From: an uncultured delta proteobacterium
Lineage (GTDB): Bacteria > Desulfobacterota > Binatia > Binatales > Binataceae
Length of the DNA stretch: 64,000 bases
Direction of reading: 5' to 3'
Assembly (NCBI GenBank): GCA_963756155.1
Contig: CAVWMQ010000010.1
Span: 8,102 to 72,101 of the forward strand
The notes beneath the pieces are model-generated. The model was given only the letters and a program-made list of their open reading frames with translations, was not told where the DNA came from and did not search any database. Shown piece by piece: positions 44,570 through 61,917 of the stretch; position 1 is the first letter of the stretch; the number at the start of each line of letters is the position of its first letter. Position numbers and translations under genes: made by a program.

Positions 44570-44762
44570 CGGTAGCGGAGTGAGTGGGATTTTGAACCGC
44601 CCCTTTACCTCAGCGCTTTGCGCTCGGACCCGATCGCGCAGCAGCGCGCTCGAAGCGGACATTCTGCACTCGGTTCCAACGTCCGCTCATCAGAAATCCC
44701 GACACCTGGCCTCCCGGATCGCGCGTGAAACGAACGCTTATACCGTCGGAGATAGAGGAATT
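44570..44762 (-). repeat. copy A of ~190-bp repeat family with tRNA-Ser-like 3' terminus (most divergent copy)
   Basis: Plus strand tagcggagtgagtgggattttgaacc… …cgaagcggacattctgcactcggttccaacgtccgctcatcagaaatcccgacacctggcctcccggatcgcgcgtgaaacgaacgcttataccgtcggagat. The minus strand ends …GGTTCAAAATCCCACTCACTCCGCTA. It abuts the stop of the GATase gene. Confidence 0.6.
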
Positions 44763-45462
44763 ACTCGATCGAGTTCAGCCACTCGTCGAAACACTTGTGC
44801 GCCTGAATTTCCAGGCGCGCCGCGTAGCGCGCGGTTTCGGCGCGAAGCGCCGTGATGGAAAGCTTCACGCCCGCGAGTTCGCACGCGTGCCCGATGTACC
44901 ATTGCTCGAGCCGTGCCGTGATTGCCTCCGGATGAAACTGGAAGCCGAGCGCGTTGCGGCCCCAGGAGAAAGCCTGATTGCGGCAGATCTCTGTCGATGC
45001 GAGCAGAGTCGCGCCCGCGGGCAAATCGAAGGTATCGCCATGCCAGTGGAGCACCGCAGTATTGTCCTGGCCTAAGTGGCGAACCACCGACTCGCATCCC
45101 GCGGGCCACAGCGTGATTTGACCCCACCCAATTTCCTTGCGTTGGCCCGGATAAACGCGCGCGCCCAGCGCGCGCGCCATCAACTGGGCCCCAAGACATA
45201 TGCCGATCGTCGGCCGCTTCGCGCTCAGCCGCATTTCAAGCAGGTTCAGCTCGTCTTTGAGCGTCGGATAAAGATCATCTTCGTATGCGCCGATTGGTCC
45301 GCCGAGCACGACGACGAGATCCGGCGCGGTCGCATCCAGCGATGCGATGTCATCGACCCCGCAATCGGCGTAACGGACGCGATAGCCGGCGCGCTCGAGC
45401 GCTGGCTCCAGGCTGCCGAGATCTTCGAAGTGCACATGCCTGATCGCTATCGCAGTTTTCAT
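44761..45462 (-). CDS. class I glutamine amidotransferase (GATase1, GuaA-N-like) protein
   Basis: MKTAIAIRHVHFEDLGSLEPALERAGY…VVLGGPIGAYED…IGICLGAQLMARALG…FQFHPE. The Cys-His triad context is present. ATG at about 45462. Confidence 0.8.
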   Translation of the reverse strand: MKTAIAIRHVHFEDLGSLEPALERAGYRVRYADCGVDDIASLDATAPDLVVVLGGPIGAYEDDLYPTLKDELNLLEMRLSAKRPTIGICLGAQLMARALGARVYPGQRKEIGWGQITLWPAGCESVVRHLGQDNTAVLHWHGDTFDLPAGATLLASTEICRNQAFSWGRNALGFQFHPEAITARLEQWYIGHACELAGVKLSITALRAETARYAARLEIQAHKCFDEWLNSIE

Positions 45463-45520
45463 GAGCGGGTGGACCCGAAGCAGTGCGTGCTGCGCGTCGA
45501 GGCGGCGAGTAAAGCGCCCT

Positions 45521-46171
45521 CTATGACGATGTGGGCGTAGCGGAAGCCGCCGACACCAGCAGCACCACCGCATCGCGCTTCCCCAGCGCGGCGAGGCGAT
45601 GCGGCGTGCGCGCGTCGAAATGCGCCGCATCGCCGGGTTGCAGCGAATGCTCTTCGTTTTCGAAAATGAGATTCAACCCGCCCGAAATCACGTACAGCCA
45701 TTCCTCGCCCTCGTGCCGATAGAATTTGTCGTGATGCCGGCTCGCAGGGATTCGCATCTCCATCGCCTGCAAGCCCGTCAGCGCGCCGCCGCCGGAGACT
45801 GCGCGATAGGCAAGACCGTTGGCGATTCTCGGCGCCGAAGTTCCCGAGCGAATAATTCTGCACGGCGGCATCGTCAGTAAGTCGCCATCGAGCAAGGTGC
45901 GCACCGGGATGTTGTAAACCTGCGCCAGGGTCAGCAGTGCCGCGAGCGACGGCTGGCGACCCCCGCTTTCCAGCCGTGACAGGTACGGTTCCGACAACTT
46001 GCTGAGCTTGCTCAGCCTCTCCAGCGTCCAACCGCGCTGACTGCGCAACGTCTTGAGCCGCGTGCCGAGCGAGGAGAGAACCTGCTCGAGCGGTTTCGCG
46101 ATTCCGATTCCAACCGCCATCGAGATTGAACTAACATCAAGCATGCCTGCAGGGCAACCAAGATTGTCCAC
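45521..46171 (-). CDS. XRE-family HTH transcriptional regulator with C-terminal cupin domain
   Basis: …LGTRLKTLRSQRGWTLERLSKLSKLSEPYLSRLESGGRQPSLAALLTLAQVYNIPVRTLL (HTH_XRE)… cupin (…FYRHEGEEWLYVISGGLNLIFENEEHSLQPGDAAHFDARTPHR). Confidence 0.8.
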   Translation of the reverse strand: MDNLGCPAGMLDVSSISMAVGIGIAKPLEQVLSSLGTRLKTLRSQRGWTLERLSKLSKLSEPYLSRLESGGRQPSLAALLTLAQVYNIPVRTLLDGDLLTMPPCRIIRSGTSAPRIANGLAYRAVSGGGALTGLQAMEMRIPASRHHDKFYRHEGEEWLYVISGGLNLIFENEEHSLQPGDAAHFDARTPHRLAALGKRDAVVLLVSAASATPTSS

Positions 46172-46319
46172 CAGGCGCGGTCGCTATCCCTGAGGAGGCA
46201 GCATCCCCACCACCTGGCGCCAGCGGGGAACCCAACGCATGCAAACGCATAACGTCTTACTCGAAAGCGGTTCTTTTTGTCCCTCGCTCTTCTCGACGGT
46301 GACCGTCATTCCCCGCAGG

Positions 46320-47144
46320 TTACGCCCCCTCGATTTTCACCACGTCGCCGCTGCGGATTACTCCTGAGCGTTCGACCGTCGCGTAGACTCCGACGTTTGC
46401 ATGATTGGCCGAAACGGCGGTTTTCAGAATCCCCAGGTCCTTGGGCAGGGCACCCTGCGGCAGCGTGGTCATTACGCAGCGCCCGGTCGCGCAGGTGACT
46501 TTCAAACGCACCCCTTCGCCAATCACCAGCGTGCGTCCGACCCAGGAATTTTCGACGAAGCCCTCCTCCCTCGGCGCTACGATCAGGTTCGGCCGAAAGC
46601 GCCGCGCTTCGAAGCTGCCTTGCGGATAGACGCTCTGAAGTTGCTGCAAGGTCGCGGTGGTAAGTATGTGCACGACCGCGCCGTCGAAAAACGTGTCCGG
46701 CGGCATCGCCTCTTCAGTCACGGTCTCGCGATGGGCCAGATCATCAATATCGGGCCAATACTCCTCGAGCTCCGGACTTTCGGGCGGCTTCGATTGCAGC
46801 GAAACGCTGGCGCCCAGTGCGCGCGACAGCAAGCTGTCGAGATTGGCTTGCGTACTGACCGCCGATGCGCCATCGGGCATCGTGATCCGCACCGGAGGAA
46901 TGCCTTCGTGCATGTCGGGAGGTTCGACATACGCCGCGCGGAAGCCGAACATGCCCGGCCACTTGCGCGGATTTTTTGCGCTGACCACTTTGCCGGTGGC
47001 CAGGTCGACCAACGCATAGGACCGATCGCCCAGTAGTCCGCGTTCGGTGACCAGGCTTGAATTAATTTCCTCCCCCATCATCGACTTCACCGGGTAGCGC
47101 CACAGCGAGACGATCGATCCGGCGGTGTTTGCTTCGTGTTCCAT
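46320..47144 (-). CDS. MOSC domain-containing protein (YcbX-like)
   Basis: …IVSLWRYPVKSMMGEEINSSLVTERGLLGDRSYALVD…FRPNLIV…RCVMTT… (conserved Cys). The likely start is MEHEANTAGS. Confidence 0.8.
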   Translation of the reverse strand: MEHEANTAGSIVSLWRYPVKSMMGEEINSSLVTERGLLGDRSYALVDLATGKVVSAKNPRKWPGMFGFRAAYVEPPDMHEGIPPVRITMPDGASAVSTQANLDSLLSRALGASVSLQSKPPESPELEEYWPDIDDLAHRETVTEEAMPPDTFFDGAVVHILTTATLQQLQSVYPQGSFEARRFRPNLIVAPREEGFVENSWVGRTLVIGEGVRLKVTCATGRCVMTTLPQGALPKDLGILKTAVSANHANVGVYATVERSGVIRSGDVVKIEGA

Positions 47145-47204
47145 GGCTTGTGCGTTCTCCCTCATTTCCGTTTCGCCTCGTCTCGGGCCTTCGCGAGGTC
47201 CGAT

Positions 47205-48662
47205 TCAAGCGGTCGCCTTTTCGCGGGTTTCGATGTCTGGGGCGGCCGCCACTACCAATCTGACCGGCGCGCTAGCGTGTTCAGCGTGAATGCGATTCTT
47301 GACGCTGTCGATGAACTCAGGATTGCGCCGCAGAATCATGAACCAGGTCATTCCGATCGCGAGATAGCCCAGGAAGATGTATGGGAAAATATTGACCGGC
47401 CACGATGGCACCGGATAGACGCTGCCGACCGCCGGGACCATCAGCAACACGACCGATGCTACCGAGAACGCAACCGCGCCCGCGCCGAGTTCACGGCGTT
47501 TGCTGAGATATACCGGGGCCGCAATCGAGATCAGAAAGTAGGCCCCGAGAAAGCCGAAGGCGCCAAATGTTCCGGCGTCGTTGAAGGCGTCGAGAATTTC
47601 GAGCTTGAACACCTGGGTCAGGGCGACCGCGGACAGGAAAATCAGGACTGACATGACGGTCACGGCGACGTGAGGCGTCGCGTTGGTTTCGTGCGAAGTT
47701 CCGATCGAGCTGTGAAACACGCCTAGCTTTCCCATCGGATAGAGGATGCGCGCGCCGGAGTTCATGCACGACAGCGCCAGCGAATAGAAACTCGCCATCG
47801 CACCGAAGGAGAGCGGCGCCTTCAGCCAACCGACCTTCATCATGTCGGAGAGCACGTTGAGCGGCGCATCAATTTTGTCCAGCGTGGTCTTGTAGCCGGT
47901 AAAGCCGAGTACTTCGGTGTAGGAAACGAGCACGAAGAATGCTCCGGTCAGCAGCAGGCTGACAATTACCGCTCTGGGAATCGTCGTGAGCGGATTTCTC
48001 GCTTCTTCGCCAAACGCGGTGGCGCACTCGAATCCGACCAGGCTGAAAATCGCGACCACCACGCCGAGGCTGATTCCTGAGAAGGACGCGCCTTGCAGCC
48101 TAATTTGGGCCGGGTCAATCGCCGATTTCTGGCCGAACAGAACGATCGCGCAGAGCAAAAGAATCAGCGCAACCGACAACCCCTCCACTACCAACATCAA
48201 GCCGCTCGAAAGCCGGATGTCCTTGTAGCCGAGGTACCAGATACTGGCGGCGCATACGACAAACAGCGCCAGAGCCGGCACGTGGATACCCATCATGTCG
48301 AGCAGCGTGCTGGCAAAGATGGTGAAGCCGGTCATGCCCGCGGTGCCGATGAACAGGTAGGCCCACACCAGACACCAACCAGACAGGTTGCCGAGAGTCG
48401 TGCCCAGGCCCATCACCGTGTAGGCGTACATCGAACCCGCGGAGGTCGAGCGCTTGGCAAACTGGTTCAGATTCAGCGCCACGAAGAGCAGCATCACGGT
48501 GCCGAACAGATATGCGAGCCAGCTCGCGTTGCCGGCGTTGCTGTACATCAACGGCACGATCAACGCCGCCGTCATGGTCGGCGAAATAAGCGCGATTGCC
48601 ATCGCGGTGATGCCTGAGAAGCCGAGACATTCCTTGCGTAATGATCCGCTGGATTCACCCAT
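47205..48662 (-). CDS. APC-superfamily amino acid permease
   Basis: About 485 aa with 12 TM helices (…MAIALISPTMTAALIVPLMYSNAGNASWLAYLFGTVMLLFVALNLNQFAKRSTSAGSMYAYT…). The likely ATG is at about 48662. The listed ORF (to 48791) runs through the upstream operator array using an alternative start. Confidence 0.8.
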   Translation of the reverse strand: MGESSGSLRKECLGFSGITAMAIALISPTMTAALIVPLMYSNAGNASWLAYLFGTVMLLFVALNLNQFAKRSTSAGSMYAYTVMGLGTTLGNLSGWCLVWAYLFIGTAGMTGFTIFASTLLDMMGIHVPALALFVVCAASIWYLGYKDIRLSSGLMLVVEGLSVALILLLCAIVLFGQKSAIDPAQIRLQGASFSGISLGVVVAIFSLVGFECATAFGEEARNPLTTIPRAVIVSLLLTGAFFVLVSYTEVLGFTGYKTTLDKIDAPLNVLSDMMKVGWLKAPLSFGAMASFYSLALSCMNSGARILYPMGKLGVFHSSIGTSHETNATPHVAVTVMSVLIFLSAVALTQVFKLEILDAFNDAGTFGAFGFLGAYFLISIAAPVYLSKRRELGAGAVAFSVASVVLLMVPAVGSVYPVPSWPVNIFPYIFLGYLAIGMTWFMILRRNPEFIDSVKNRIHAEHASAPVRLVVAAAPDIETREKATA

Positions 48663-48728
48663 GGAACGTACCTCCAAGCTGCGCGCGCCCGGCACCCGCG
48701 ATGGTGCAAACGGGCTAGCGGTCAAAAA

Positions 48729-48791
48729 TTGCCTGTCAGGCAACCATGCAAGTGAGATGCCTGACAGGCAATGACGCGACCTGTCAGGCAA
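48729..48791. promoter_or_regulatory. array of three 7-1-7 palindromes TTGCCTG-N-CAGGCAA upstream of the APC permease gene
   Basis: ttgcctgtcaggcaa (48729-48743), tgcctgacaggcaa (48758-48771), cctgtcaggcaa (48780-48791). Spacing is about 25 bp, 70-130 nt upstream of the permease ATG. Candidate operator sites for a dimeric regulator. Confidence 0.55.
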
Positions 48792-48920
48792 TCAAGGAGA
48801 AATAACCACCACGCGCAGGCTGGTATGACTCGGCGCGGGTCAGATGACGCCAAATCGAGCAGCGCGGCCGTCGCCGAACCCCCAACCACCGAAAAAAACT
48901 ACTGCCGTCCCGATCGCTGG

Positions 48921-48964
48921 AAGCGAACGTTCCGCACTCGATTCCAACGTCCGCTCATCAGAAG
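48921..48964 (-). repeat. partial copy E of the repeat family (hairpin module only)
   Basis: gaagcgaacgttccgcactcgattccaacgtccgctcatcagaa matches the central module of copies A, B and C. It carries compensating differences in the stem. Confidence 0.5.
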
Positions 48965-49504
48965 GTTTGTCTCGCTTGGCGATCAGGCCGGCCTTGCGCT
49001 TGTCCTTGAGTCGATCGCTGTCACCGTTGATGTTGACGATAATGAAGTGATGCAGAATGACGATCGAGCATCGCAACGGTGAGGACGCTGTCGCCGGCGA
49101 AAGCCGAGTCTCAACTGGTCTCGCTCTCGTGGACTGTTCGAGCTCGATGCGCTGGTCGTTCCGCATGCCGACGTCGAGCAAGCGATCGAGGCGCGCGCAC
49201 GGGAGCTCGGCACCAAAATCCGGCGCGCACACGAGCTGACCGATCTGCACCATGAGGAGGGTCTCGTGAGGGTGGGAGTCATGGGGCCGAGCGGTGCCTA
49301 CGAGGAGCGCAGCCGCTATCTCGCATTCGCTCTGGCCATGGTGACACTGACCCCCTCATCAGGTACAAGGCGGAAGCACCGGCGGAGCGCAGGACTTAAT
49401 TACACAGAGGTATATTCGCGGCTCGCGTTTGAACCGCGCGGAGGGTTTCGCCGCAATCGTTCCCGAAGGAAGAGGTCCCGAGTAGAAGTCACCGAGGAGA
49501 TCCG

Positions 49505-50200
49505 ATGACGGTTAACCGCCGGCGTCCTGCGTGGCTCTCGATACTCGTTGCGAGCGTCGCCTCTGCTTTGTCGTTCTCATTGCCAGGTCTCGCCGTTCTC
49601 CCTGCTCGAGCCCAGAACTCGCCAACGCTGCAGGGCACCGTTACCAACAATGTTCCCGCGACGGCGCTCTCCAGAAACGACCTCGACACCAAGCACCAGA
49701 TCGACGAGGAAGACGATCAGCACGATGGCAACGACGCCGCTATCGACGGTGCGGTTCGCGCGGAGAACGTCGCGCATGATTACCACTTAGACCCGGACAC
49801 GGGTCTGGTCTCGCAGGATGGGAATCACTTCTATAGCGATATCGACCTTCACGGGGTTTATGATAGCGAGGGCAACGATGTCACGCGGCAGTTTTTCAAC
49901 GAGTTAATGAAAAATCCGCAGTACCGCGACGGCCCGCTACAGGACCTGATTCAGCATTATCCGCAGGATTGGTGGCAATTTAGAAATAACCCCGCGGTGG
50001 CGGGCACGAACTATGGCCACCAGGTAGGAGGCGGCAAGACCGCGACGGCTTATTTGCCGGACTCAACGGTGCGTCTGGATTCCATCGCACAGATGCGCGC
50101 GCTTTATGCTGAAAACCACATCAACTTTTCGTGGCTCTATCCCACCACTGATCGAGCCGTCATTGATGCGGCCGCTCGCGTCCAGGTCCGCCGCAATTGA
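49505..50200 (+). CDS. secreted hypothetical protein
   Basis: Signal peptide MTVNRRRPAWLSILVASVASALSFSLPGLAVLPARAQ. Acidic N-terminal region, then …QYRDGPLQDLIQHYPQDWWQFRNNPAVAGTNYGHQVGG… GC is lower than the genome average. The stop abuts the stop of the convergent gene. Confidence 0.5.
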   Translation: MTVNRRRPAWLSILVASVASALSFSLPGLAVLPARAQNSPTLQGTVTNNVPATALSRNDLDTKHQIDEEDDQHDGNDAAIDGAVRAENVAHDYHLDPDTGLVSQDGNHFYSDIDLHGVYDSEGNDVTRQFFNELMKNPQYRDGPLQDLIQHYPQDWWQFRNNPAVAGTNYGHQVGGGKTATAYLPDSTVRLDSIAQMRALYAENHINFSWLYPTTDRAVIDAAARVQVRRN

Positions 50201-50902
50201 CTAGTGATACTGCATATACCGCGTAATAGTCAGCGCGTCGGCGGAGCTCACCTTCTCGAGACCACCGTAGAAAAGCCGGACCGCGTTGCACTTCTCCTCC
50301 GCGGCCACACTCCCGGAAGTATTCGTCGCCATCGCCCGGATAGCGGCTTGATCGGTGGGCGATATCGTCGCCATCAGCCGGTCCATCGCGGCATTGAACT
50401 GAACCTGCGGCGCCGCCGGCATTGCCGGTTGGTTTTTTATCGTCGCGAGCGCAGCCATGTCGAAAAGCTGGGCCGATTGACGCTGCTGGTCGTCGGGCAG
50501 CGCTTCGATCGCGCGCACCAGCACGTCGCTATTCCCGCCCGACCACATTTCCGAACAGGCCTCCGCGTTGGCGCGCCGGACGAAGTCAGACCGCAGCCGA
50601 GCGATCGGGATCAGAGTCGGATCGTCGAGGCGCTGGAATCCCTGCACCGCTGCGAGCCGGACCACCCCCGCCACGTCGATATGCGAGGCATCGATATGCT
50701 GCGCGTTGGCCTCGCGCGCACCGGCCAACAGCAGCGCCTCGACGATGTCCGGGTAGCCCTTCTGCAGAGAAGTTTCGAAGACCGTGGGCGCGGTGCCGGA
50801 TTCGGTCGTGTCGGCGCCGGGCACCTTGTAGGTGCGCTGAACCACGAACCACAAGAGCACTAGCAGCGCGAGTACCGCTATCAAGGTCAGAAACCTTCCC
50901 AT
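50201..50902 (-). CDS. membrane-anchored hypothetical protein
   Basis: N-terminal TM helix MGRFLTLIAVLALLVLLWFVVQ, then a ~200-aa soluble domain with no family match. Confidence 0.5.
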   Translation of the reverse strand: MGRFLTLIAVLALLVLLWFVVQRTYKVPGADTTESGTAPTVFETSLQKGYPDIVEALLLAGAREANAQHIDASHIDVAGVVRLAAVQGFQRLDDPTLIPIARLRSDFVRRANAEACSEMWSGGNSDVLVRAIEALPDDQQRQSAQLFDMAALATIKNQPAMPAAPQVQFNAAMDRLMATISPTDQAAIRAMATNTSGSVAAEEKCNAVRLFYGGLEKVSSADALTITRYMQYH

Positions 50903-51163
50903 CGATCGGCTCTCGCCAAGGCGTCATTTGAATTCAACGATCGACAATCAGAACCGCGCAAAAAACCCGGCCACTCGGGTGCCGCTGGATTTCACGCGAG
51001 ATATCATTTCATCGAAACTAACTGCGAATCACAACTGCCGAATCAATTCCCGGATTGAATTCAAGCAGCGCCGCGCGATTGCGGCGGCAATACCTACTCG
51101 CTTGTGCCCGCGGCCGGCCATTTGCGGCGATCTCCCTCGGCCCGGCGCCGGAGGCGGTCGGGG

Positions 51164-52999
51164 TCAGGGAATCGGACAACTGCGCGCCAACGCGAACCTT
51201 GCTGAGAGCGTTTTGCCCTGACCTAAGCTGAAGTCATATTTGAAGCGAACATCGTAGGAACCATTTTCAAAGATAGGACCCAGAAATTGCAGTGTGCGAC
51301 CCGTGTCGAGGTCCAGATAGTAGGGGGCGTTGTTAAACTGTCCGCCGCTCGCGGGATGACGCGTCACGGCGAGGCTGCCGGCGGTCGGTCGGCCTTGGTA
51401 ATCGATTACCGCAACAATCATTCCGTCGGTGCGGTAGCGCGTCGTTGGACACCCTTCGGTTCCTGTGATCGTCGAACCCGGAGGATAGATTTTCGTTGCG
51501 GCCGGAAGCTTCGCTCGCGACCCCTGTCCGGTCACCGAGCCGTCCACAAACGCGAAACCGGTCAGGCTGGCGTTCGCGTCGGCGCTGGCAGAGAAGGACC
51601 GTGTCGCATCAGACACCTGCATCGACGGATATTTCACGTTGATCGTCAGATTCAGCGTGCCGGTTCGGTAGGGAAACTTCGCCGCGTCGTAGCTGAGTAG
51701 TCCGGAGGGTGCGTTGGGGTTGTTCGACAGTCCAACGCCCTCGCGCGGAGTGCCATTCGGGTTCAGCTCGAGCACATGGGTGCTGTCCTCGTCGTGAAAC
51801 ACCAGGATCGCGTAAGAACCGGGGTCTTGACTCTCGAAGTCGCATCCGGCGCGTCGATTGGTGATCGTCGACGCAGTGCTCGCCGCGTTCCCATCGGTGT
51901 TCGAGGGGAAGTCTTGGGCCGACTCAAACAGCTGGCAATAGACCTGCCCCCGGTTGTTTCGCAGCCCCGCGATCTCGACATGGATAAGGTTGTCGGATTG
52001 ACCTCCTTCCTCCTCCTGGTCGGAGTTGGCAAGTCTTGCGTCGTTTTGATCTGGCAACTCGGCTAGAACGACACCCTGCTCGTCGAGTGCCGAATCGATG
52101 ACCCATTCGGTGCCGAAGACCCCGATGCTACCGGCGGCATATGAGCCGCGGCCATAATTTTCGAGATGCGCGCTTTTGATCCGCTTACCGCGCAGCCCTT
52201 TTGCTCGCAGTTTCGCCACCGCTGCGGGTAGATCCATAAAGCTCGCAGGTAACGCACGTTGATCCCTGGGATCGGCGCTGGAGCCGGGCATCAACTCGCT
52301 GGCGGGCGAATTAGGCATAAGGGTGAGCGTCTGCTGCTGTCCGGGAGAGAAGAAGTTGAACTCGACCAGCACACCCCCCTGCGGGGATTGCGCATTGCTG
52401 ATACTGGAGGTCAGCTCCATCTGGATCGACGTCAGGAAGGCGTCGGGTTGCCATTTGGTCCGAACGTACGCGAGTGCACGCTGCGCGATCGCCGGCACGT
52501 CTCCGATCGGCCATTGGACTTGCTCCGGGAGCACCTGGCTTGCGGCCGCGCTCCGCATTGGGGCCTCGGACGAACTGCGGGTCCACTCGATATCGGCGCC
52601 GGGGGCGGTTCGGGTCGTCATATGTTTGCTGCCTTCGAGGCGAAACGCACCGACCATCCCCGAGATGCTGCCCCCCATGATCATGAACGTGCCGCTGTCC
52701 TTGCCGGTGACGTAAAGGTTTGGCGCAAAGGTACCGTTTGGCAGGCTCGTAATAGTGGCCTGCTGACTAGTCAGCGGCATCGGGCACGAATCGCCGTAGG
52801 CGATCTGCCCCGTATCGCCAATTTCCATCACGCATCGCTGACGTTGGCCGGCCGGGTTGGAAATTTCCGCCTGCCACCGGCCCACGGTCGTACTCTTCGC
52901 TGGCGCCGATGTATCGGACTCGGAATGTCGGCACCCCCAGATACCGGCGGCGATCACGATCGCGAGACTAAAGCGTACGATCGCGCTCATTTGGGACAA
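51164..52999 (-). CDS. large lipoprotein of unknown function with DUF2141-like segment
   Basis: Signal/lipobox (…AIVIAAGIWGC). 611 aa. The segment …IHVEIAGLRNNRGQVYCQLFESAQDFPSN… resembles the DUF2141 pattern as I remember it. Many Gly/Ser/Thr-rich beta-like regions. Confidence 0.55.
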   Translation of the reverse strand: MSQMSAIVRFSLAIVIAAGIWGCRHSESDTSAPAKSTTVGRWQAEISNPAGQRQRCVMEIGDTGQIAYGDSCPMPLTSQQATITSLPNGTFAPNLYVTGKDSGTFMIMGGSISGMVGAFRLEGSKHMTTRTAPGADIEWTRSSSEAPMRSAAASQVLPEQVQWPIGDVPAIAQRALAYVRTKWQPDAFLTSIQMELTSSISNAQSPQGGVLVEFNFFSPGQQQTLTLMPNSPASELMPGSSADPRDQRALPASFMDLPAAVAKLRAKGLRGKRIKSAHLENYGRGSYAAGSIGVFGTEWVIDSALDEQGVVLAELPDQNDARLANSDQEEEGGQSDNLIHVEIAGLRNNRGQVYCQLFESAQDFPSNTDGNAASTASTITNRRAGCDFESQDPGSYAILVFHDEDSTHVLELNPNGTPREGVGLSNNPNAPSGLLSYDAAKFPYRTGTLNLTINVKYPSMQVSDATRSFSASADANASLTGFAFVDGSVTGQGSRAKLPAATKIYPPGSTITGTEGCPTTRYRTDGMIVAVIDYQGRPTAGSLAVTRHPASGGQFNNAPYYLDLDTGRTLQFLGPIFENGSYDVRFKYDFSLGQGKTLSARFALARSCPIP

Positions 53000-53330: not shown

Positions 53331-53386
53331 AGACTGCTTGGCGGTGAGGGTGGGATTTGAACCGTCGCGCCCCTTGATTTTCAGCG
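53331..53386 (-). repeat. partial copy D of the repeat family (tRNA-Ser-like 3' terminus module only)
   Basis: Plus gactgcttggcggtgagggtgggatttgaaccgtcgcgccccttgattttcagcgg. The minus strand ends …GGTTCAAATCCCACCCTCACCGCCA. By my memory this is identical to the 3' end of enterobacterial tRNA-Ser(GCU) (…CCCTCACCGCCA). Confidence 0.55.
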
Positions 53387-55262: not shown

Positions 55263-55320
55263 CGACAAACTGGGAGCATACATCTCCTGGCGCGTAGCGC
55301 GGAACCGGATCCGAACGTGG

Positions 55321-55760
55321 CGCCGCGCTCCGTACGCAGATGCCGTCTACGGCTGGACGAGCTAGGGCACAGCAGCGCAGCATTGCACTTCGAGCAGCAG
55401 CCCCGGGACCATCAGCGCGGAGACGCCGATCGTCGCGCTCGTATATGTGGGTCTGGTCAGGAGGTTTTTTCTGACTTCGACATAGCGCTGCCCGTTGCGC
55501 GAAAGATCAACGACAAAGCTCGTCATCTAGAGAATCTGATCCAGCCCGGATCCTGCCGCCCGCAGCACCGCTTCGATGTTCTGGTAGGTCTTCGCAGTCT
55601 GCTTCTCGATGTCTTCGCCCACGATCCGGCCTTGCGGGTCGAGAGCGGAGATGCCCGAAAGGTACAGCACGTCGCGATAGCGCACGCAGTTGGTGAAACC
55701 GAACCGCTCCTACTGCAGTATCCCAGTCGTAGGAACGACTTGTATCATCGACGTGCCTCC
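55321..55760 (-). pseudogene. RidA/YjgF-family gene interrupted by two in-frame TAG codons
   Basis: Minus-strand reading: MIQVVPTTGILQ * ERFGFTNCVRYRDVLYLSGISALDPQGRIVGEDIEKQTAKTYQNIEAVLRAAGSGLDQIL * MTSFVVDLSRNGQRYVEVRKNLLTRPTYTSATIGVSALMVPGLLLEVQCCAAVP. It is colinear with RidA over the full length (…SGQ…DP.TG…QT…L.NI.A.LEAAG…KTTVF…PAR..V.V..LP.G…EIE). TAG stops sit at about 55721 and 55528. Confidence 0.6.
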
Positions 55761-55992
55761 TGTTTCGTGGTGCTGGAATATATTGGCTGAAGCCGGACCA
55801 TCTGAAGAACAAACCAGGCTCCACAATCGCGGGAAGGACACCGGCTGAGAACGGCGGGTCGAAAACCCTCGGGCCGCTGGGGATTCGCCAAGGCGTGATA
55901 TCCGGCAGCAGCTGTAAGGGCGCGGAGGTGATAGCCCTGATTCAGGCCGAGTGCCAGGGAAAGGGTTTCCGAGCCGAACGGAGGGTTTAGTC

Positions 55993-56808
55993 ATGGATGA
56001 AACGCACGAATTTGAGACGATCAAGGTCGCAGTCGATGGCGCCCTGGGCAGACTGACTCTCAACCGGCCCGAACGGCTGAATGCAATCGGCGCGACAATG
56101 CTCCGTGAGCTGGCGGAGGCCGCGCGCTGGTTCGATACGCATCATGATCTACGGGTTGTAATCGTGAGCGGAGCGGGCCGCGCATTCTCCGCCGGCGCCG
56201 ATCTCAAAGATTCACCACTGGCGCAAAGCGCTCCAACGTCGCGCAGATCGTGGCTCGCACGACGCGAAGGCGGGCAACTGGGACTGCGCGCCGCCGACGC
56301 GCTCGAGAACATGCACGCGGTGACGATCGCGCAAGTTCATGGCTACGCGGTCGGCGGCGGAGTCGTGCTGACGGCGGTATGCGATCTGCGGGTCGTTGCC
56401 GACGACGCATCGTTCTTTATTCCCGAGGTTGAGCTGGGGATTCCGCTAGCGTGGGGCGGTATCCCGCGCCTGGTGCGCGAAATAGGGCCGGCGCTCACCA
56501 AGGAGCTGGTGATGACATGTCGGCGATTCAGTCCCGAGGAAGCCAAATCGATCGGCTTCGTGAACCGCGTCGTGCCGCCCACTCGATTGAAAGACGAAGT
56601 AGAAGAACTCGCGCTGCAGTTGATTGCGATGCCGTCGGTACCGGTAGCGATTACCAAAGAGCACGTCAATTCGGTGGTGCGTGCGATGTCCGCGGGAACG
56701 ACATCGTTTGCCGACGGTGACGTGCTGCTCGGTTCGTTCGGCGAGGAAGAGTCGCGTGCTGCCGCGGCCGCTTATCGCGAAAAAACCTTTGGCAAAGAAA
56801 GGCCCTGA
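55993..56808 (+). CDS. enoyl-CoA hydratase/isomerase (crotonase) family protein
   Basis: MDETHEFETIKVAVDGALGRLTLNRPERLNAIGATMLRELAEAARWFDTHHDLRVVIVSGAGRAFSAGADLKD…AQVHGYAVGGGVVLTAVCDLRVV… carries the crotonase signature. Confidence 0.85.
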   Translation: MDETHEFETIKVAVDGALGRLTLNRPERLNAIGATMLRELAEAARWFDTHHDLRVVIVSGAGRAFSAGADLKDSPLAQSAPTSRRSWLARREGGQLGLRAADALENMHAVTIAQVHGYAVGGGVVLTAVCDLRVVADDASFFIPEVELGIPLAWGGIPRLVREIGPALTKELVMTCRRFSPEEAKSIGFVNRVVPPTRLKDEVEELALQLIAMPSVPVAITKEHVNSVVRAMSAGTTSFADGDVLLGSFGEEESRAAAAAYREKTFGKERP

Positions 56809-56924
56809 TTGCTTCGAAGGGTTTGACGGGAGACCCTCCGCCGTGCGTGATTACAGCAAACGATCAGGTTGCCACGCGGAGCGTCGACGCATTGATAGCG
56901 ATCGATCGCACAGGAGGCGCGGCC

Positions 56925-58163
56925 ATGGTGGACGATCTCGATTTGACCAATCTCGATTTGTTCCTCGCGGGCGATCCACACTCGGTATGGAAGGAGCTTC
57001 GCGCCACTGATCCGGTCCACTGGACCGAGCGGCAGAACAAAAGAGGCTTCTGGTCGATCACCAAACATGCCGACGCGCAGCGCGTTTATCGCGATCCGGC
57101 GACCTTCAGCTCGCGGGGCGGGGTCGCGCTCGGATCTGCCGACGCGCAGGATCCAACTCAGCCGCAGATGCAATCCGGCTTCGGCCAGATGATGATCCTC
57201 ACCGATCCTCCGCGTCATGGCCGCATGCGCCAGATGCTGAACCGGCGTTTCACGCCGCGCGCACTGGCGCCGCATGAGCCGCACATCCGGGCGATAACGA
57301 CTGAGATCCTCGATGCGATCGCCGAGCAGGGCCGCTGCGACCTGGTGGTCGATGTCGCGGCGAAGTTGCCCACCGCAGTTATCTGCGAGATGCTCGCCAT
57401 CCCACGCGAGGATTGGGACCTCATGTTCGCGCTCGGCAACATGACGCTAGGCAGCGAAGATCCCGAGTACCAGGTCGATGGATCTTCGCAGAAGACCAGT
57501 GCGCAGGCGCAAAAGGAGATATTCAGCTACTTCATGAAGCTGATCGGCGAGCGCCGCAGCAATCCCGGCCCCGACCTGGTCAGCGCGCTCGTCAACGGCG
57601 AAATCGACGGGGATCGCCTGACCGACGTGGAGGTTCTCTTCAACTGCTTCCTGCTGATACTCGGCGGCCAGGAGACCACTCGCAATGCGATAAGCGGTGG
57701 CATGAACGCGCTGATGCGCAATCCGTCCGATCGCGAGCGGCTCTCGCGCGACGCTTCGCTGATGCCGTCGGCGATTGAGGAAATCCTGCGCTGGACTTCA
57801 CCGATCACGCACATAATGCGCACCGCTACGCGCGAGGTCGAAATCCGGGGGCGCACTATTCAGCAAGGCGCTCGCGTGGTCATCTGGAATCCTTCCGGAA
57901 ATCGCGATGAGGAAGTGTTCGATGATCCTTACCGTTTCGATATCGCTCGCCAGCCAAACGACCATATCGCGTTCGGGTACGGCGAACATTTCTGCATTGG
58001 CGCCAACCTGGCCCGCCTGGAAATGCGCGTGATGCTGGACGAGCTATTGCGGCGCATGCCCGACATGGCGCCCGCCGGGCCGGTCGAGCGGCTGCGCTCC
58101 AACCTGCTTGCCGGCATCAAGCATCTGCCGGTCACATTCAGTCCGGCCAAGCGCGCAGCCTGA
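56925..58163 (+). CDS. cytochrome P450
   Basis: …EILRWTSPI… (ExxR)…FGYGEHFCIGANLARLEM (heme-binding FxxGxHxCxG). I-helix LLILGGQETT. ATG at 56925. Confidence 0.9.
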   Translation: MVDDLDLTNLDLFLAGDPHSVWKELRATDPVHWTERQNKRGFWSITKHADAQRVYRDPATFSSRGGVALGSADAQDPTQPQMQSGFGQMMILTDPPRHGRMRQMLNRRFTPRALAPHEPHIRAITTEILDAIAEQGRCDLVVDVAAKLPTAVICEMLAIPREDWDLMFALGNMTLGSEDPEYQVDGSSQKTSAQAQKEIFSYFMKLIGERRSNPGPDLVSALVNGEIDGDRLTDVEVLFNCFLLILGGQETTRNAISGGMNALMRNPSDRERLSRDASLMPSAIEEILRWTSPITHIMRTATREVEIRGRTIQQGARVVIWNPSGNRDEEVFDDPYRFDIARQPNDHIAFGYGEHFCIGANLARLEMRVMLDELLRRMPDMAPAGPVERLRSNLLAGIKHLPVTFSPAKRAA

Positions 58164-58367
58164 TCGCCGCGGCCGCTGATCGCGGAAAAGCCTTTGGCAA
58201 GGAAGGCCCTGGTTAAATCCGCGAGCCTCCCGCGTCGACATCCGAGCGGCCGACCGAATCTTATAGCTGGCCGCCGGGGATCACGCCCTGGCGAATCGCC
58301 TCGACCTGCTCGGCGGAGAACGGCGGGTCGAAAACCTCGGACCGCTGGTGATAGACGCGGAAGAGGT

Positions 58368-58559
58368 AACCCTCGGTGGCGGAGACGGTGGGATTTGAAC
58401 CGTCGCGCCCCTTGATTTTCAGCGGGTTGCGCTCGGATCCGATTGCGCGCCGGCGCGCTCGGGTGCTCTCTCGAAGCGAACGTTCTGCGCTCGATTCCAA
58501 CGTCCGCTCATCAGAAATCCCGATACCTGGCCTCCCGGGTCGCGACTGAAACGAACAGC
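58368..58559 (-). repeat. copy B of ~190-bp repeat family with tRNA-Ser-like 3' terminus
   Basis: Plus tggcggagacggtgggatttgaaccgtcgcgccccttgattttcagcgggttgcgctcggatccgattgcgcgccggcgcgctcgggtgctctctcgaagcgaacgttctgcgctcgattccaacgtccgctcatcagaaatcccgatacctggcctcccgggtcgcgactgaaacgaacagc. The minus strand ends …CGACGGTTCAAATCCCACCGTCTCCGCCA. Confidence 0.65.
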
Positions 58560-59153
58560 CTAACCAGCGCCTTGAACTCGGCAGCGGCGCGTTCAACGCG
58601 CTCTGCTGTGAAGAAATGCGGCGCAAACGCGTCCCAGAACGCGTCGTCTGCCCACCACGAAGCCATCGCTTAACCTGACGGGCTAACATAGGGGAGGGCG
58701 TCGAGTTTCTCATGCGCGCAGGCAGGATCTGGCCGCGCCCGTGGAGCGGCCACCGAAGTCAAAGCCTAACGAATCCGGTGAGCCCTGATTAGCCCGCCTA
58801 GCGTGGCCTGCTAGCAGTCAGCTACATTCAGGCCGCGGGCCTGGAGATTAAACTGTCGCGCAAAGGGGGAGGACGCACCAGTGAGAATTCAGAAGGTAGC
58901 GCCTTTGTCGCTAACCCCGAAAGCCCGCATCGAGGCTGCGGCTCCTATACCGGTCAAAGGGTTTTTGGCGCACGAGCAGAAATCGAAAATCACCAGGTCC
59001 GGGGCCTCAATATAGAGTGAAGGGAATCGGAACTTTGCAAGAAGAGTGAACACCGTTTCGGGGGACGCCTGCGAAGCGCCGGGGACAACTGGGCAATGGT
59101 GATACGGCTATCTTTGTTCGACGCGGCAAAGTGTAAATCTCGTATAAAATCTC

Positions 59154-60125
59154 ATGTTTGCCAAGTTAAACTGGAAATTCCGGAATAAGAGGGGAGTCGT
59201 CTTGAATACAAGAAACGTCCTGTCAGCTTCGCTAGTTTCATTTTGTAGCTTGCTCTTGTTTATCTCAAGTGCGAGCGCACAGACAGCCTGTACGCCTGTT
59301 GTTTATGCCTTCCGTCACGCAGAAGATGTGTCGGGGACGGCGCCCCAATCCGATTGCTTCCCCGGCTCCACTGTCAAGTGTTCTACTGCACTCAAACCGA
59401 CGGGGACCGAGCACGCCAATCTTTACGTCGAGATGATAACCAGTTTCGAACACCTCAAGAAATATTGCCCCGTGGCGACTGTCTATTCAGTTAACCCGGT
59501 TTTGCCGACTGGTGGCGGGGGCACAAATAATCCATTTTATACAGCTCGGCCGTTAGCTAACACCGTGATGAATGACGACCCTATTATCACGATCGATGGT
59601 AAGAACCTGGATGAATTCTTGACGCAGGTCACACCGGAGAACTTACGCGCTGAACTGGTAAACAGCATGACATCAGGTTCAACGGCAGTGTTTTGGACAA
59701 GTGACGGTTTACACGACCTTGGTAATGCTATCGTTGAGGGCTTCCAGGGTATTCCAGTCAAAAATAAAGCCACAGGTGTGCCGCCGAGAAATGCGGCTTA
59801 TGTTTTTGAATATAACGGGCTCGGCGGCTTTTCTCCACCAATGACCAACTCGCCATACGAGGGCAGTACGCAATTTGTACAATGCTTCAATTGGGCTCCC
59901 TTTAGGGCTGTCGGCGATGTGAGTTCTACAAAATACTTCTGTGGAAAAGCAATGGCGGCGGGTAGCATAAGCGATTTAATAGGCGATTCGAATCTCTATA
60001 AGTTACACGGAAGGATTTGTGATACATGCACCATCGCTTCTGCTACCTGCCCCAGCCCCCTTAAGGCCGTAACACAATCTGTGGACTATTACGGCTACTG
60101 TGAATCGCCGCCTTCGGCTCAATAA
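59154..60125 (+). CDS. Cys-rich secreted protein of unknown function in low-GC islet
   Basis: Signal peptide …LSASLVSFCSLLLFISSASAQ. 12+ Cys residues (…QTACTPVVYAF…SDCFPGSTVKCST…KYCPV…QCFNW…YFCGKAM…RICDTCTIASATCPSP…YYGYCES). Local GC is about 45-50%, against about 68% in the flanks. Confidence 0.6.
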   Translation: MFAKLNWKFRNKRGVVLNTRNVLSASLVSFCSLLLFISSASAQTACTPVVYAFRHAEDVSGTAPQSDCFPGSTVKCSTALKPTGTEHANLYVEMITSFEHLKKYCPVATVYSVNPVLPTGGGGTNNPFYTARPLANTVMNDDPIITIDGKNLDEFLTQVTPENLRAELVNSMTSGSTAVFWTSDGLHDLGNAIVEGFQGIPVKNKATGVPPRNAAYVFEYNGLGGFSPPMTNSPYEGSTQFVQCFNWAPFRAVGDVSSTKYFCGKAMAAGSISDLIGDSNLYKLHGRICDTCTIASATCPSPLKAVTQSVDYYGYCESPPSAQ

Positions 60126-60240
60126 TTGTCGCCAAGGCACAAGGCGGATGGCCTATACCTGCGCCAGCGTCGGTAACCAGCGCAACCTTACCGTTAATCT
60201 CTAGACTCCTTTTCAGAATGAAAGAGGAAAGGGAGAGCAA

Positions 60241-61185
60241 TCAAAATGTACGCGGTCGCTTTCTTTGTTCGGACGCGCTGCGCGTGCTCGACCCTCGGCG
60301 CTCTGTCATCGGAATGGCTTCCAGCCCAGGACCGGGGACGAGTTGATCGTAGGAGACGCCTAGCAGCCAAACGAAGGCGACCGCGCCTGTTCCGGATGAG
60401 GCGTGATTGAGTGCGATTTGTGCGCCCACGTTGATCTCGAACGTATCGTTCATCCATGCGATTGCCGGGGTTAGCTCGAGATCGGGTGCCGAAGAATTGT
60501 TGTGTGCGCTCAGGTACTGCGCGTAGTCGAAATCCAGATGAGGCGTGAAGTTGCGCAACAGCGTCGCAACCGAATTTGCCGCGACATTGGCCTCGAGGTA
60601 GCCAAGCGAGTATTCGAGCTCCAGGTCGGCGCTCAGCAGGTCGTCGCGTGCGCCAGTGACTTTGCTGTCGAATCCCGCATCGCCCTCGATAGCAGCGGGG
60701 CGTAACAGACCGATCGACTCGGGCAAGTCGCCGAAGCCTTTCTGAAAAAGAACCTCGCCGCCGGCGCGCGTGTGGGTTTCGGAAACCCCGCTGTCGCCAA
60801 CCGGCAACTCAAGAGTCGGGTTGATCGTGAGAAGGAATTCATTGGCAGGCAGCGATAAAAGCAGGTGTTTGTATCCGAGACCCAGGTTGGTGAATCCGCT
60901 GAGCGCGGCGTCCTCGCCTTCCTGTTCGAGCCGCTGGTAGCCGACGAAGAGCGAGAAGCTGGCGTCGGAGGAGATGGTTTTTTCGAGGTACAGCGACTCG
61001 AAGTTCTGTGCGCGATCGAGGCCGCCGGATACGGAGAGATAGTTTTCAACGGTCGCGTCGTTGCCGATGAAGTTGCCGACGAAGTTGCGCGGTGCCGGAG
61101 CCGATGAGCCGGCCAAGACCGAGCGCGGCAGGATCGAGGCGAGCGTTATCAGGAACATCGCGGCTAATGTGCGGAGGAGACTCAT
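60241..61185 (-). CDS. secreted / putative outer-membrane protein of unknown function
   Basis: ATG at about 61185. Signal peptide MSLLRTLAAMFLITLASILPRSVLA. About 290-aa mature part with alternating hydrophobic residues and a C-terminal aromatic residue before the basic tail. It may belong to the small OM beta-barrel families (for example MetA-pathway/'transporter'-like). This assignment is not firm. Confidence 0.5.
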   Translation of the reverse strand: MSLLRTLAAMFLITLASILPRSVLAGSSAPAPRNFVGNFIGNDATVENYLSVSGGLDRAQNFESLYLEKTISSDASFSLFVGYQRLEQEGEDAALSGFTNLGLGYKHLLLSLPANEFLLTINPTLELPVGDSGVSETHTRAGGEVLFQKGFGDLPESIGLLRPAAIEGDAGFDSKVTGARDDLLSADLELEYSLGYLEANVAANSVATLLRNFTPHLDFDYAQYLSAHNNSSAPDLELTPAIAWMNDTFEINVGAQIALNHASSGTGAVAFVWLLGVSYDQLVPGPGLEAIPMTERRGSSTRSASEQRKRPRTF

Positions 61186-61717
61186 GCGATGATGCAGCGC
61201 GACTGCTGATAGTTTCGCGGTCTTGCACTCCTGATTTGGCATGGAGTGATCACCGATGGTGGGCAATTTCTACCATATAGTGGTCCGAGCGTATGGGCGC
61301 CACACCATCGGCAGCTTCGTTCCCTCCAAAATGTTTTTCGATGGGAGAGTGGAGTTTCCAGAAGAGTGGACGAGAGTACAGCGTGGTGCGCGATGCGCAT
61401 GCGTCATTGTTAACAGGGTTAGAGCGTAGGCATAAGGCGGAAAAGTTCAGTGGTGGTGAAGCATGGGAACCTAACCCCTAACCCCTTGCGCAGAACCCTC
61501 ACCCCAGGCGAGGACGCCGTTCCCTCTCCCGCAAAGCGGGCGAGGGTAATTCGGTACTCCGAGCGACACCGGGGAAGGGGGACCAGAAAAAAATGGAATC
61601 GTGTCGTCCTATCCCCCTCACCCCTTTCCGGTGGCGAGTATTCGGATGTTCCCTTCAAGCATTAGAACGCCGCACACACGCGGCATCTTTTCGCACATCT
61701 CTGAAATCGCAGACTGC

Positions 61718-61917
61718 TTGGCGGAGAGGCTGGTATTTGAACCGTCGCGGCCCTTGATTTTCAGCGGGTTGCGCTCGGATCCGATCGCGCGCCGGCGCGC
61801 TCGGGTGCTCTCTCGAAGCGGAACGTTCTGCACTCGATTCCAACGTTCGCTCATCAGAAATCCCGATACCTGGCCTCCCGGATCGCGAGTGAAACGAACG
61901 CTGATGCCGTCGGAGAT
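61718..61917 (-). repeat. copy C of ~190-bp repeat family with tRNA-Ser-like 3' terminus
   Basis: Plus ttggcggagaggctggtatttgaaccgtcgcggcccttgattttcagcgggttgcgctcggatccgatcgcgcgccggcgcgctcgggtgctctctcgaagcggaacgttctgcactcgattccaacgttcgctcatcagaaatcccgatacctggcctcccggatcgcgagtgaaacgaacgctgatgccgtcggagat. The minus strand ends …GGTTCAAATACCAGCCTCTCCGCCA. Same orientation as B, 3.35 kb away. Confidence 0.65.

Follow-up and report, generated by a model that had tools for sequence, protein, structure and literature searches.

What kind of element is a 200-nt repeat that ends like a tRNA, contains an apparent hairpin and recurs between unrelated gene blocks of a Candidatus Binatus genome? A first-pass annotation, made from the letters of the window (the whole stretch of 64,000 nt analysed here), described three long copies (A, B and C) and two partial ones (D and E), and proposed as explanations attL/attR-type remnants of an element integrating into tRNA-Ser genes, a tRNA-derived MITE or SINE-like element, or a small structured ncRNA family. 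The copies are where it placed them, all in one orientation. We conclude that they are an ordinary recombination scar at the joints of a patchwork, strain-variable island of an uncultured Binatus, and that they have no RNA function and are not a new RNA.

Results

Extent of the repeat

Copies A, B and C are co-oriented and share 78-94% pairwise identity over 180-200 nt. A sixth copy, F, is found on related metagenome contigs, and the copy count in all searchable sequence collections is ~6. Each repeat comprises the 3' end of one protein-coding gene (gene X hereafter) and, behind it, ~45-55 nt of downstream flank that holds a decayed tRNA-Ser 3' end. The 5' ends of the copies are ragged, with B, D and E truncated, and A and C have exactly the same 5' limit (Table 1).

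Table 1. Repeat copies and associated features in the window
Feature	Position	Strand	Description and basis
Copy A, homology limits	44549/44568-44754		measured
Copy A, coding-derived part	44610-44753	-	47 codons plus stop (ISDGISVRFTRDPGGQVSGFLMSGRWNRVQNVRFERAAARSGPSAKR); sequence reading, translation, BLASTP
Copy A, decayed tRNA-Ser 3' remnant	44573-44609	-	GGTAAAGGGGCGGTTCAAAATCCCACTCACTCCGCTA; homology to F runs on to ~44549
Copy B, homology limits	58372-58556		measured
Copy B, coding-derived part	58419-58556	-	45 codons plus stop (VRFSRDPGGQVSGFLMSGRWNRAQNVRFERAPERAGAQSDPSATR); translation
Copy B, tRNA-Ser 3' remnant	58377-58418	-	AAATCAAGGGGCGCGACGGTTCAAATCCCACCGTCTCCGCCA; tRNA-Ser(GCU) match, shuffle test
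Fragment after copy B	58264-58371	-	encodes ...PFSAEQVEAIRQGVIPGGQL plus stop; tblastn, blastn
Copy C, homology limits	61710-61917		measured
Copy C, coding-derived part	61761-61917	-	5' limit as A (ATCTCCGACGG); one-C frameshift
Copy C, tRNA-Ser 3' remnant	61711-61760	-	CCA at 61719-61721, plus 8 nt AGCAGTCT in common with D
Copy D	53331-53391	-	measured homology limits, weakly to 53423; last codons of gene tail plus stop, TGA 53381-53383; tRNA-Ser 3' remnant 53339-53380; AGCAGTCT
Copy E, 50-nt internal coding piece	48914-48963	-	measured homology limits; LMSGRWNRVRNVRFQ; IS21-family IstB pseudogene fragment joined at 5' side
IS21-like IstB helper ATPase C-terminal fragment (pseudogene)	48978-49058	-	NCBIfam NF006616 (E=4.8e-6; profile positions 226-252 of 253); sequence reading
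Lower-GC, strain-variable stretch	44549-64000	.	composition, Pfam, strain contigs L038, L040, L047

Coding origin

Read on the minus strand, each copy begins with ~140 nt of coding sequence (ISDGISVRFTRDPGGQVSGFLMSGRWNRVQNVRFER…stop), and translation gives this open frame in A, B and F. The coding part is the C-terminus of gene X, a beta-lactamase/DUF3471 serine hydrolase. The 47-aa peptide of copy A aligns with the C-terminus of protein P0129 at 22 of 32 identical positions (BLASTP, E=1e-13); the domains assigned to P0129 are PF11954 (DUF3471) and PF00144, with a Beta-lactamase ORF just upstream. A longer gene (P0001, P0126), 53% identical to P0129 (E=2e-61), terminates in the repeat block in contigs L024 and L040, and in L047 the long gene likewise ends in it. 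This C-terminus is conserved in orthologs 53-58% identical, and the homologs P0127 and P0128 retain GFLMSGRWNRVQNL(K/R)FER. The peptide encoded by the repeat aligns at the extreme C-terminus of serine hydrolases of the PF00144 plus PF11954 type (P0129, P0127, P0128), and copy F and the copy in L040 are the ends of such a gene, whereas A to E are fragments without catalytic domain or start codon. The differences between copies are those of a coding sequence too, as 8 of the 14 variable sites fall on codon position 3 and pairwise dN/dS among copies is 0.11-0.51. With a family-homologous open frame and synonymous-biased substitutions the region qualifies as a protein-coding 3' end, and the remark in the first-pass annotation that the ORF track leaves it unannotated was misleading, since the repeat is coding-derived.

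The junctions on the 5' side vary. The coding part of A, which has no start codon, starts 7 nt past the GATase stop codon (44761-44763), and that of B is cut and fused to the start of an unrelated 35-codon ORF (58562-58666). In L040 and L047 a small ORF lies ~450 nt beyond the A-type block, on its downstream side; the end of this ORF is 64% identical over 33 aa to the fragment after copy B, which indicates that the duplicated unit once extended further downstream.

The tRNA-Ser remnant

The assignment of the terminal module to the 3' end of a tRNA-Ser was confirmed. The last ~40 nt of the copies are such a remnant, with the best database matches flush with tRNA-Ser 3' ends: copy B shares 89% identity with the 3'-terminal 37 nt of tRNA-Ser(GCU) from Priestia, F aligns with tRNA-Ser(CGA) of Acidiphilium, and D, by its last 29 nt compared with annotated E. 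coli tRNA-Ser genes, with tRNA-Ser(GGA), the latter two again flush with the 3' end. The score at which the last 40 nt align to three tRNA-Ser genes was reached by 0 of 500 shuffles; the 57 nt upstream of the remnant align to tRNA-Ser genes no better than shuffles do. Every terminal module contains a 7-nt TTCAAAT-type loop (8 nt in A) and then exactly 16 nt, made up of 5 + 7 + G + CCA (CTA in A), and what the remnant preserves is half of the T arm and, of the acceptor, the 3' strand with G and CCA. Only 1-4 of the 5 T-stem positions are paired.

A complete tRNA gene was rejected, as ARAGORN found no cloverleaf and Rfam gave no tRNA match even at E<=10. ARAGORN detected 0 tRNA or tmRNA genes in the window, in line with the expectation that no intact tRNA would be present, and none at the copies in L022-L025, L038-L041 and L047; neither the window nor any fetched locus of the lineage contains an intact tRNA-Ser gene. 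A tmRNA was likewise rejected, none being found in the window by model or by ARAGORN. Copy B yields a truncated alignment of the tmRNA/tRNA clan, covering T arm and acceptor only (6.5 bits), and the real tmRNA of the relatives (L027, 187.8 bits) resembles the repeats in the T-arm/acceptor part only (25 nt, 84%, E=0.6). The last ~28 nt of copy F also match the consensus GGGGUUCGAAUCCCCCCCUCUCCGCCA of the Xanthomonas sRNA sX4 (RF02223), which is itself tRNA-Ser-3'-like; however, with 21.6 bits against a gathering threshold of 70 and only the tRNA-like stretch aligning well, F is not a member of this family.

The hairpin

Copies A, B, C and E contain CUGAUGAG and a 9-bp stem. The first-pass annotation held the hairpin to be preserved by compensating substitutions and thus under selection as RNA or as cruciform DNA. 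Neither claim was supported when 9 different stem sequences were compared, taken from the window copies, their strain orthologs, F and one distant ortholog: two-sided changes occur at 0 of the 9 pairs, the covariation score of 0.093 was reached by 404 of 500 shuffles, and 4 of the 9 sequences lack pair 13-34. What looked like compensation amounts to wobble changes on one side only, of which two out of three lie at third codon positions and are synonymous. The first-pass list had included the bulged C and A-U pair of copy C; the extra C, which shifts the reading frame, and the accompanying G-to-A change are both missing in the orthologs of C in L038 and L023. Read as codons, CUGAUGAG is Leu-Met-Ser and the hairpin S-G-R-W-N-R-V-Q-N-V-R, and the orthologs in L039 and L050 retain the protein though not the stem. 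Folding energies are no better than those of shuffles (z = -0.26 and +0.65), and the suggested Rfam search matched the repeat to no family.

The core of the hammerhead ribozyme consists of CUGAUGA, stem II and GAAA, together with a cleavage-site helix. In the repeat, as in this core, CUGAUGAG directly precedes a G-C-closed stem. However, this motif is a run of codons, the stem is followed by UUCGAG instead of GAAA, a cleavage-site helix is lacking and Rfam gives no match at gathering or at E<=10, and a hammerhead was therefore rejected.

The island and its variation between strains

GC content drops at 44 kb, from ~0.64 in 1-44 kb, where core genes such as uvrB are located, to 0.56-0.62 in 44549-64000, and the lower-GC stretch extends from 44.5 to beyond 64 kb. 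All five co-oriented copies lie at joints where 3-5 kb blocks of mutually unrelated genes meet. The IstB fragment adjoins copy E and points to past IS activity at that joint; besides this scrap, searches with Pfam, NCBIfam, PHROGs and PADLOC found no integrase, transposase or phage genes in 24-64 kb. The locus thus has direct repeats of the 3' part of a target bounding strain-variable DNA, as in an att array, but neither an integrase per element (24-64 kb) nor an intact target gene, tRNA-Ser being the one sought. Integron attC arrays have imperfect palindromic attC sites after single-gene cassettes and IntI nearby. Such an array was rejected, because the units are not long palindromes, the blocks comprise several genes on both strands and no integrase was found in 24-64 kb.

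In window-type strains (L015, L017, L018) GATase precedes A. In L040 and L047 an A-type block directly adjoins gene X, and A's own flank comes next; in L024 the block after gene X is of F type and its flank is a different one. Relatives have the GATase-permease block in three settings, one of them directly abutting the 3' end of a tmRNA. The copies are mosaics of one another: A in L015 has a B/D-type patch, and the blocks of L040 and L047 are A/F mosaics. Between L024 and L040 divergence is gradual over ~200 nt with no single sharp crossover, which fits homologous recombination better than integrase action.

Discussion

How then did pieces of one gene end come to lie at every joint of the island? 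On balance we favour, as somewhat better than an even guess, a history in which successive insertions of foreign DNA into one locus left the copies behind as att-like or homology duplications, which now recombine with each other. Long ago an integrase acting at a tRNA-Ser gene may have left a displaced tRNA 3' fragment beside gene X. Foreign circles carrying their own segment of gene X end, tRNA scar and downstream sequence would then have inserted repeatedly by Campbell-type recombination, be it site-specific or homologous, each insertion adding one more direct copy and displacing the earlier one. Deletions and an IS21 element could subsequently have shortened the displaced copies from the 5' side to varying extents, leaving them as mere homology patches that would undergo gene conversion and allow intervening blocks to be lost or rearranged. 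This history is built on six copies, one of which, F, is known from related contigs; its place upstream of C on the same replicon is putative, as no contig runs on past the window end. The 5' limit common to A and C has no explanation in random trimming; it fits a putative homology segment of fixed length on the incoming DNA.

Integrative elements are known to regenerate their target and leave a displaced fragment, to form tandem arrays and to recombine within them (PMC4383910, PMC7192596). The closest known systems are the Islander/TIGER arrays at the 3' ends of tRNA, tmRNA or protein genes (PMC4383910, PMC7192596). As in these, foreign-looking, lower-GC and strain-variable blocks lie here between direct repeats that reproduce the 3' portion of the target in one orientation, contain a tRNA 3' end flush to CCA and recombine within the array. 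The Binatus locus differs in that no integrase or intact tRNA-Ser is visible, in that the repeat is mostly a protein-gene end with a decayed tRNA scar, in its ~200-nt copies being 78-94% identical rather than near-identical, and in strain breakpoints that resemble homologous recombination. Among the three initial proposals the att remnant thus came closest, except that most of the repeat comes from the 3' end of a protein-coding gene and is not element DNA of an unknown kind.

Possible, though clearly less probable, is that gene X or its end was duplicated in situ and decayed, the copies arising by unequal or illegitimate recombination and no circles coming in. The nature of the copies, coding-derived fragments without start codons, would agree with this, as would the lack of mobility genes nearby, the gene conversion seen among copies and the piece of downstream ORF carried by B, which a larger duplicated segment would include. 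However, the copies differ by up to 22%, and divergence with dN/dS of 0.11-0.51 means that much of it arose in working gene ends, which is impossible for truncated in-situ copies. The blocks between copies, moreover, are mutually unrelated, lower in GC and strain-variable, and the GATase block occurs elsewhere in relatives. A still-active site-specific cassette system, in which the composite would be the site of a recombinase that is encoded outside the window and moves the 3-5 kb blocks, we regard as improbable. It would account for co-oriented copies at every block joint, for the identical 5' limit of A and C and for the empty-site-like arrangement in one strain, and a tRNA-derived core is typical of the att sites of tyrosine integrases (PMC4383910); yet no recombinase gene is seen in 24-64 kb, the copies are ragged with three of them truncated, strains part at gradual or mosaic breakpoints, and T-arm and core sequences differ among copies. 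The bolder form of this idea, that the ~200-nt composite is the working site of an unrecognised, integrase-poor Binatota cassette system whose recombinase, located elsewhere, shuffles blocks at one chromosomal hot spot, appears more doubtful still.

The remaining two proposals of the first-pass annotation have very little left to recommend them. MITEs are characterised by terminal inverted repeats, target-site duplications and many copies. A unit that is short and repeated, looks intergenic, ends like a tRNA and has the same limits in A and C may call to mind a MITE or SINE-like element, but terminal inverted repeats are absent, the aligned flanks show no target-site duplications, all searchable data hold only those few copies, the 5' ends are ragged, and the supposed element runs collinear with an orthologous gene at that gene's native 3' end; we consider such an element very unlikely. 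Hardly any probability attaches either to a family of small structured ncRNAs that would be minus-strand transcripts and resemble a tRNA at the 3' end. What had spoken for it were the stem in four window copies with its wobble-compatible changes and the T-loop-like, CCA-like end. Against it stand the coding origin and coding-type substitutions of the region, distant orthologs that conserve the protein and not the stem, the zero compensatory changes with covariation no higher than in shuffles, the shuffle-like folding, the missing Rfam family and a T stem with only 1-4 of 5 positions paired.

The locus thus carries a caution: a ribozyme-like motif, a "compensating" stem and a tRNA-like tail can all arise from duplicated coding sequence beside an old att scar, and synonymous third-position transitions mimic covariation that preserves wobble pairs. 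A new mechanistic question would be opened only if a dedicated recombinase turned up. To our knowledge, the phylum of Candidatus Binatus is known from metagenomes only. In the Candidatus Binatus population the locus marks a recombination hot spot, whose junction sequences can be used to track the gain and loss of gene blocks between strains.

Results

The first-pass annotation had described a repeat family in a single orientation, and this family is real, with the sequence features ascribed to it. The window carries three long and two partial copies, of which the long ones share 78-94% identity over 180-200 nt. Read on the minus strand, the TTCAAAT-type loop of every terminal module (the tRNA-Ser-like repeat end) precedes a tail of exactly 16 nt (5 + 7 + G + CCA, with CTA in place of CCA in copy A). 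Four of the copies, A, B, C and E, contain the central module, CUGAUGAG with a 9-bp stem.

Repeat copies and other features of the window
Feature	Coordinates (strand)	Remarks
Copy A	about 44549-44754	long; same orientation as B-E
Copy B	58372-58556	long; same orientation as A, C-E
Copy C	61710-61917	long; same orientation as A, B, D, E
Copy D	53331-53391	partial; same orientation as other copies
Copy E	48914-48963	partial; same orientation as other copies
Inter-copy gene block		GATase/HTH-cupin/MOSC/permease
Inter-copy gene block		hypotheticals + DUF2141
Inter-copy gene block		DUF3108-like, enoyl-CoA hydratase, P450
Inter-copy gene block		two hypotheticals
Inter-copy gene block		DUF3224 + methyltransferase-like gene
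IstB fragment	48978-49058 (-), to about 49090	C-terminal, frameshifted
Chimeric ORF	58261-58713 (-)	150 codons
44-nt direct repeat	56761-56804 / 58166-58209	86% identical; flanks P450 gene
Cytochrome P450 gene	56823-58163
GGN-type triplet repeat tract	29319-29387	within OmpA-family ORF
351-aa ORF	30298-31353	no Pfam match; degenerate tandem repeats, 18 to 105 nt, at 30458-30744
Adenylate-cyclase/AAA/TPR ORF	40313-43894	1193 codons
55-nt direct repeat	43596-43650 / 43671-43725	71% identical; near 5' end of adenylate-cyclase/AAA/TPR ORF

A pattern scan across 185,579 species genomes turned up chance matches only and no further copies, and a DNA scan of a viral collection gave none. In metagenome contigs, loci A and E recurred at strain level on L015-L021, about 98% identical, and a single new copy, F, lay on the equivalent contigs L022, L024 and L025. 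Near-identical contigs of this Binatus population come from samples 3300062790, 3300075518 and ERZ25039605. A six-frame peptide search for ORFs spanning other copies and an exhaustive HMMER search returned orthologous contigs and known loci only, adding the orthologous contigs L023 and L038, the latter 99.3% identical to window positions 56812-64000. Since copies occur only in strain-level loci and as F, and are absent from the close relatives L026-L036 (GATase identity 85-87%), the family comprises few copies and is limited to this lineage. Homologs of the GATase adjoining copy A are named Candidatus Binatus or Binataceae, and the GC content of the window is 62.5%.

On the minus strand, about 140 nt at the start of the repeats are of coding origin. 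There A, B and F have a single open frame, (ISDGIS)VRFTRDPGGQVSGFLMSGRWNRVQNVRFER plus 11-15 residues and a stop, and the same frame ends a longer gene on L024 (predicted protein P0001) and L040 (P0126), here called gene X, a beta-lactamase-family serine hydrolase gene with DUF3471-type C-terminal domains. P0001 shares 53% identity (E=2e-61) with P0129, a predicted protein of 324 aa in which the tail of PF00144 occurs together with DUF3471 (PF11954) and which is preceded by a Beta-lactamase ORF. The 47-residue peptide of copy A is identical to residues 288-319 of P0129 at 22 of 32 positions (E=1e-13), and GFLMSGRWNRVQNL(K/R)FER is kept in homologs at 58% identity. Because the repeat frame is a gene end with homologous C-termini, CUGAUGAG reads as Leu-Met-Ser and the presumed hairpin as the codons S-G-R-W-N-R-V-Q-N-V-R. 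The substitution pattern among the copies fits coding sequence, with 8 of the 14 variable sites of an 87-nt core at codon position 3 and pairwise dN/dS values, from small counts, of 0.11-0.51. What had appeared in copy C as a bulged base is an inserted C that shifts and thereby destroys the frame; this extra C and a G-to-A change (61812-61861) are both missing in the L038 and L023 orthologs and reflect either recent mutation or an assembly error. The central module is almost certainly coding-derived and not a structured RNA.

In the first-pass annotation the stem had been taken as a hairpin kept by compensating substitutions and hence under selection for RNA or DNA structure, a claim that did not survive comparison of nine distinct stem versions. 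No pair has changed on both sides, the covariation score was equalled by 404 of 500 shuffles, and four of the nine versions do not form pair 13-34. The supposedly compensating changes are one-sided transitions, three in all: two synonymous ones in A and one in C that turns Gly into Glu. Whole-copy folding energies are ordinary for composition (z-scores of -0.26 and +0.65), and the orthologs on L039 and L050 retain the protein but the stem only in part. RNA covariation is lacking, and there is no evidence of structural selection on the stem.

A small structured ncRNA family, another of the proposed identities, fails its defining test, as pairs are not maintained by compensatory changes. Rfam yielded zero matches in the whole window at gathering thresholds; searched in E-value mode, B, its terminal module and F (L024) gave nothing beyond chance or tRNA-clan fragments below threshold. 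The proposed MITE, an attC site and a hammerhead each fail their defining tests at this locus, the hammerhead reading of CUGAUGAG being ruled out by the absence of GAAA after the stem.

The tRNA-Ser-like 3' ends, also noted in the first pass, were borne out. Over 37 nt the end of B shares 89% identity with the Priestia tRNA-Ser(GCU) 3' end. The end of F resembles Acidiphilium tRNA-Ser(CGA) and that of D resembles tRNA-Ser(GGA) of E. coli, a match that recurs in 5412 of 5426 genomes of this species; in all three cases the match stops exactly at the 3' terminus of the tRNA. In alignments to three tRNA-Ser genes, the final 40 nt scored above 500 of 500 shuffles. The 57 nt upstream did not score above shuffles, so that the full ~97 nt after RFER were rejected as a decayed complete tRNA-Ser, and only 1-4 of the 5 T-stem positions are paired. 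The repeat ends are a scar in the form of a tRNA-Ser 3' remnant and not a whole pseudogene. The F end also aligns, well under threshold, with the tRNA-Ser-like stretch of Rfam sX4. As anticipated, ARAGORN finds no intact tRNA in the window, and no tmRNA; no tRNA-Ser remnant lies downstream of the gene X orthologs of other lineages (L039, L041, L050).

GC content is about 0.64 across 1-44 kb as compared to 0.56-0.62 across 44-64 kb. To the left of the repeats are core genes, uvrB among them, and in the right part the copies sit at joints between blocks of mutually unrelated genes. Integrase, transposase, phage or defence genes were not detected across 24-64 kb, nor did PHROGs and PADLOC match the unannotated ORFs between the copies. 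Fused directly to E is a fragment of IstB, the IS21-family helper ATPase (NF006616 positions 226-252 of 253, E=4.8e-6), with neither istA nor an intact IS nearby; the repeat as the right end of an IS21 element was rejected, as the IstB piece is merely fused to a gene X coding fragment. Further to the left, the 55-nt direct repeat possibly sits in the true upstream region of the adenylate-cyclase/AAA/TPR gene.

The GATase-permease block has two other contexts in relatives. In the Ca. Binatus relatives L027-L031 and L035 (10759-11116 in L027) the GATase is followed by a tmRNA gene (tag ADNNGYALAA) and smpB, the tmRNA 3' end lying 2 nt from the GATase stop, and L026 shows a third GATase context. 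In the window copy A occupies the place of the tmRNA (44570-44763), and tmRNA and smpB are both absent; a tmRNA fragment as the origin of the repeat was dismissed for its wrong strand and lack of similarity.

On contigs L040 and L047, a tRNA-Val (which ARAGORN calls in L040 only) is followed by APH, gene X and an A-type block, and the block leads into the downstream flank of copy A itself, 97.8% identical to window positions 44754-44156; in the window, L015, L017 and L018 it is instead the GATase that precedes A. Upstream, L024 and L040 are 99.9% identical up to about position 750, past which the match fades gradually and L024 continues with an F-type block and a different flank. In the L040 and L047 blocks, A-type and F-type markers form a fine mosaic. 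Copy A of L015 (about 4330-4400) has a B/D-type patch, TGAAAATCAAGGGGCGTGACGGTTCAAATCCCAC, in the tRNA remnant of an otherwise A-type block, which indicates gene conversion between dispersed copies. The synteny of L038 with the window ends at 56812, beside the first copy of the 44-nt direct repeat.

The chimeric ORF around B starts with 35 unrelated codons (MASWWADDAFWDAF...), continues through copy B, read in the wrong frame, and ends in a 33-aa C-terminal fragment (...PFSAEQVEAIRQGVIPGGQL and a stop); pieces of it are called by gene callers in other assemblies (P0123), and a methyltransferase-like nature of its start is unsupported by comparison with the relatives' neighbouring methyltransferase. 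In L040 and L047, a small ORF downstream of the A-type block has an end that is 64% identical to this 33-aa fragment, whose presence after B means that the duplicated unit formerly reached further downstream.

Discussion

How did gene X ends come to be scattered over these joints? We lean slightly towards a history of serial insertion. A displaced tRNA-Ser fragment would have become fixed beside gene X, and DNA with diverged versions of this gene end and scar would have inserted repeatedly in Campbell fashion, each insertion adding one direct copy. Older copies may then have been trimmed through deletions and IS activity, and those of the present day shaped by gene conversion and by copy-mediated loss or rearrangement of blocks. 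Duplication in situ is a rival history; the dN/dS values below 1 between copies that cannot now function argue that their divergence built up in different lineages, while each was still a working gene end, and import is favoured for this reason. Serial insertion agrees with the known logic of integrative elements, with their regenerated targets, displaced fragments and tandem arrays (PMC4383910; PMC7192596), but a history driven purely by an integrase is opposed by the missing integrase and tRNA-Ser gene and by breakpoints that are gradual and mosaic.

Serial insertion aside, the locus behaves like the att/homology scar array of a genomic-island hot spot and differs from a currently definable integrative element in that both an integrase and an intact target are missing from it. 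It is a further instance of a known feature type. Its use is mainly in marking how plastic Binatota genomes are and in warning that duplicated coding sequence can show covariation-like patterns.
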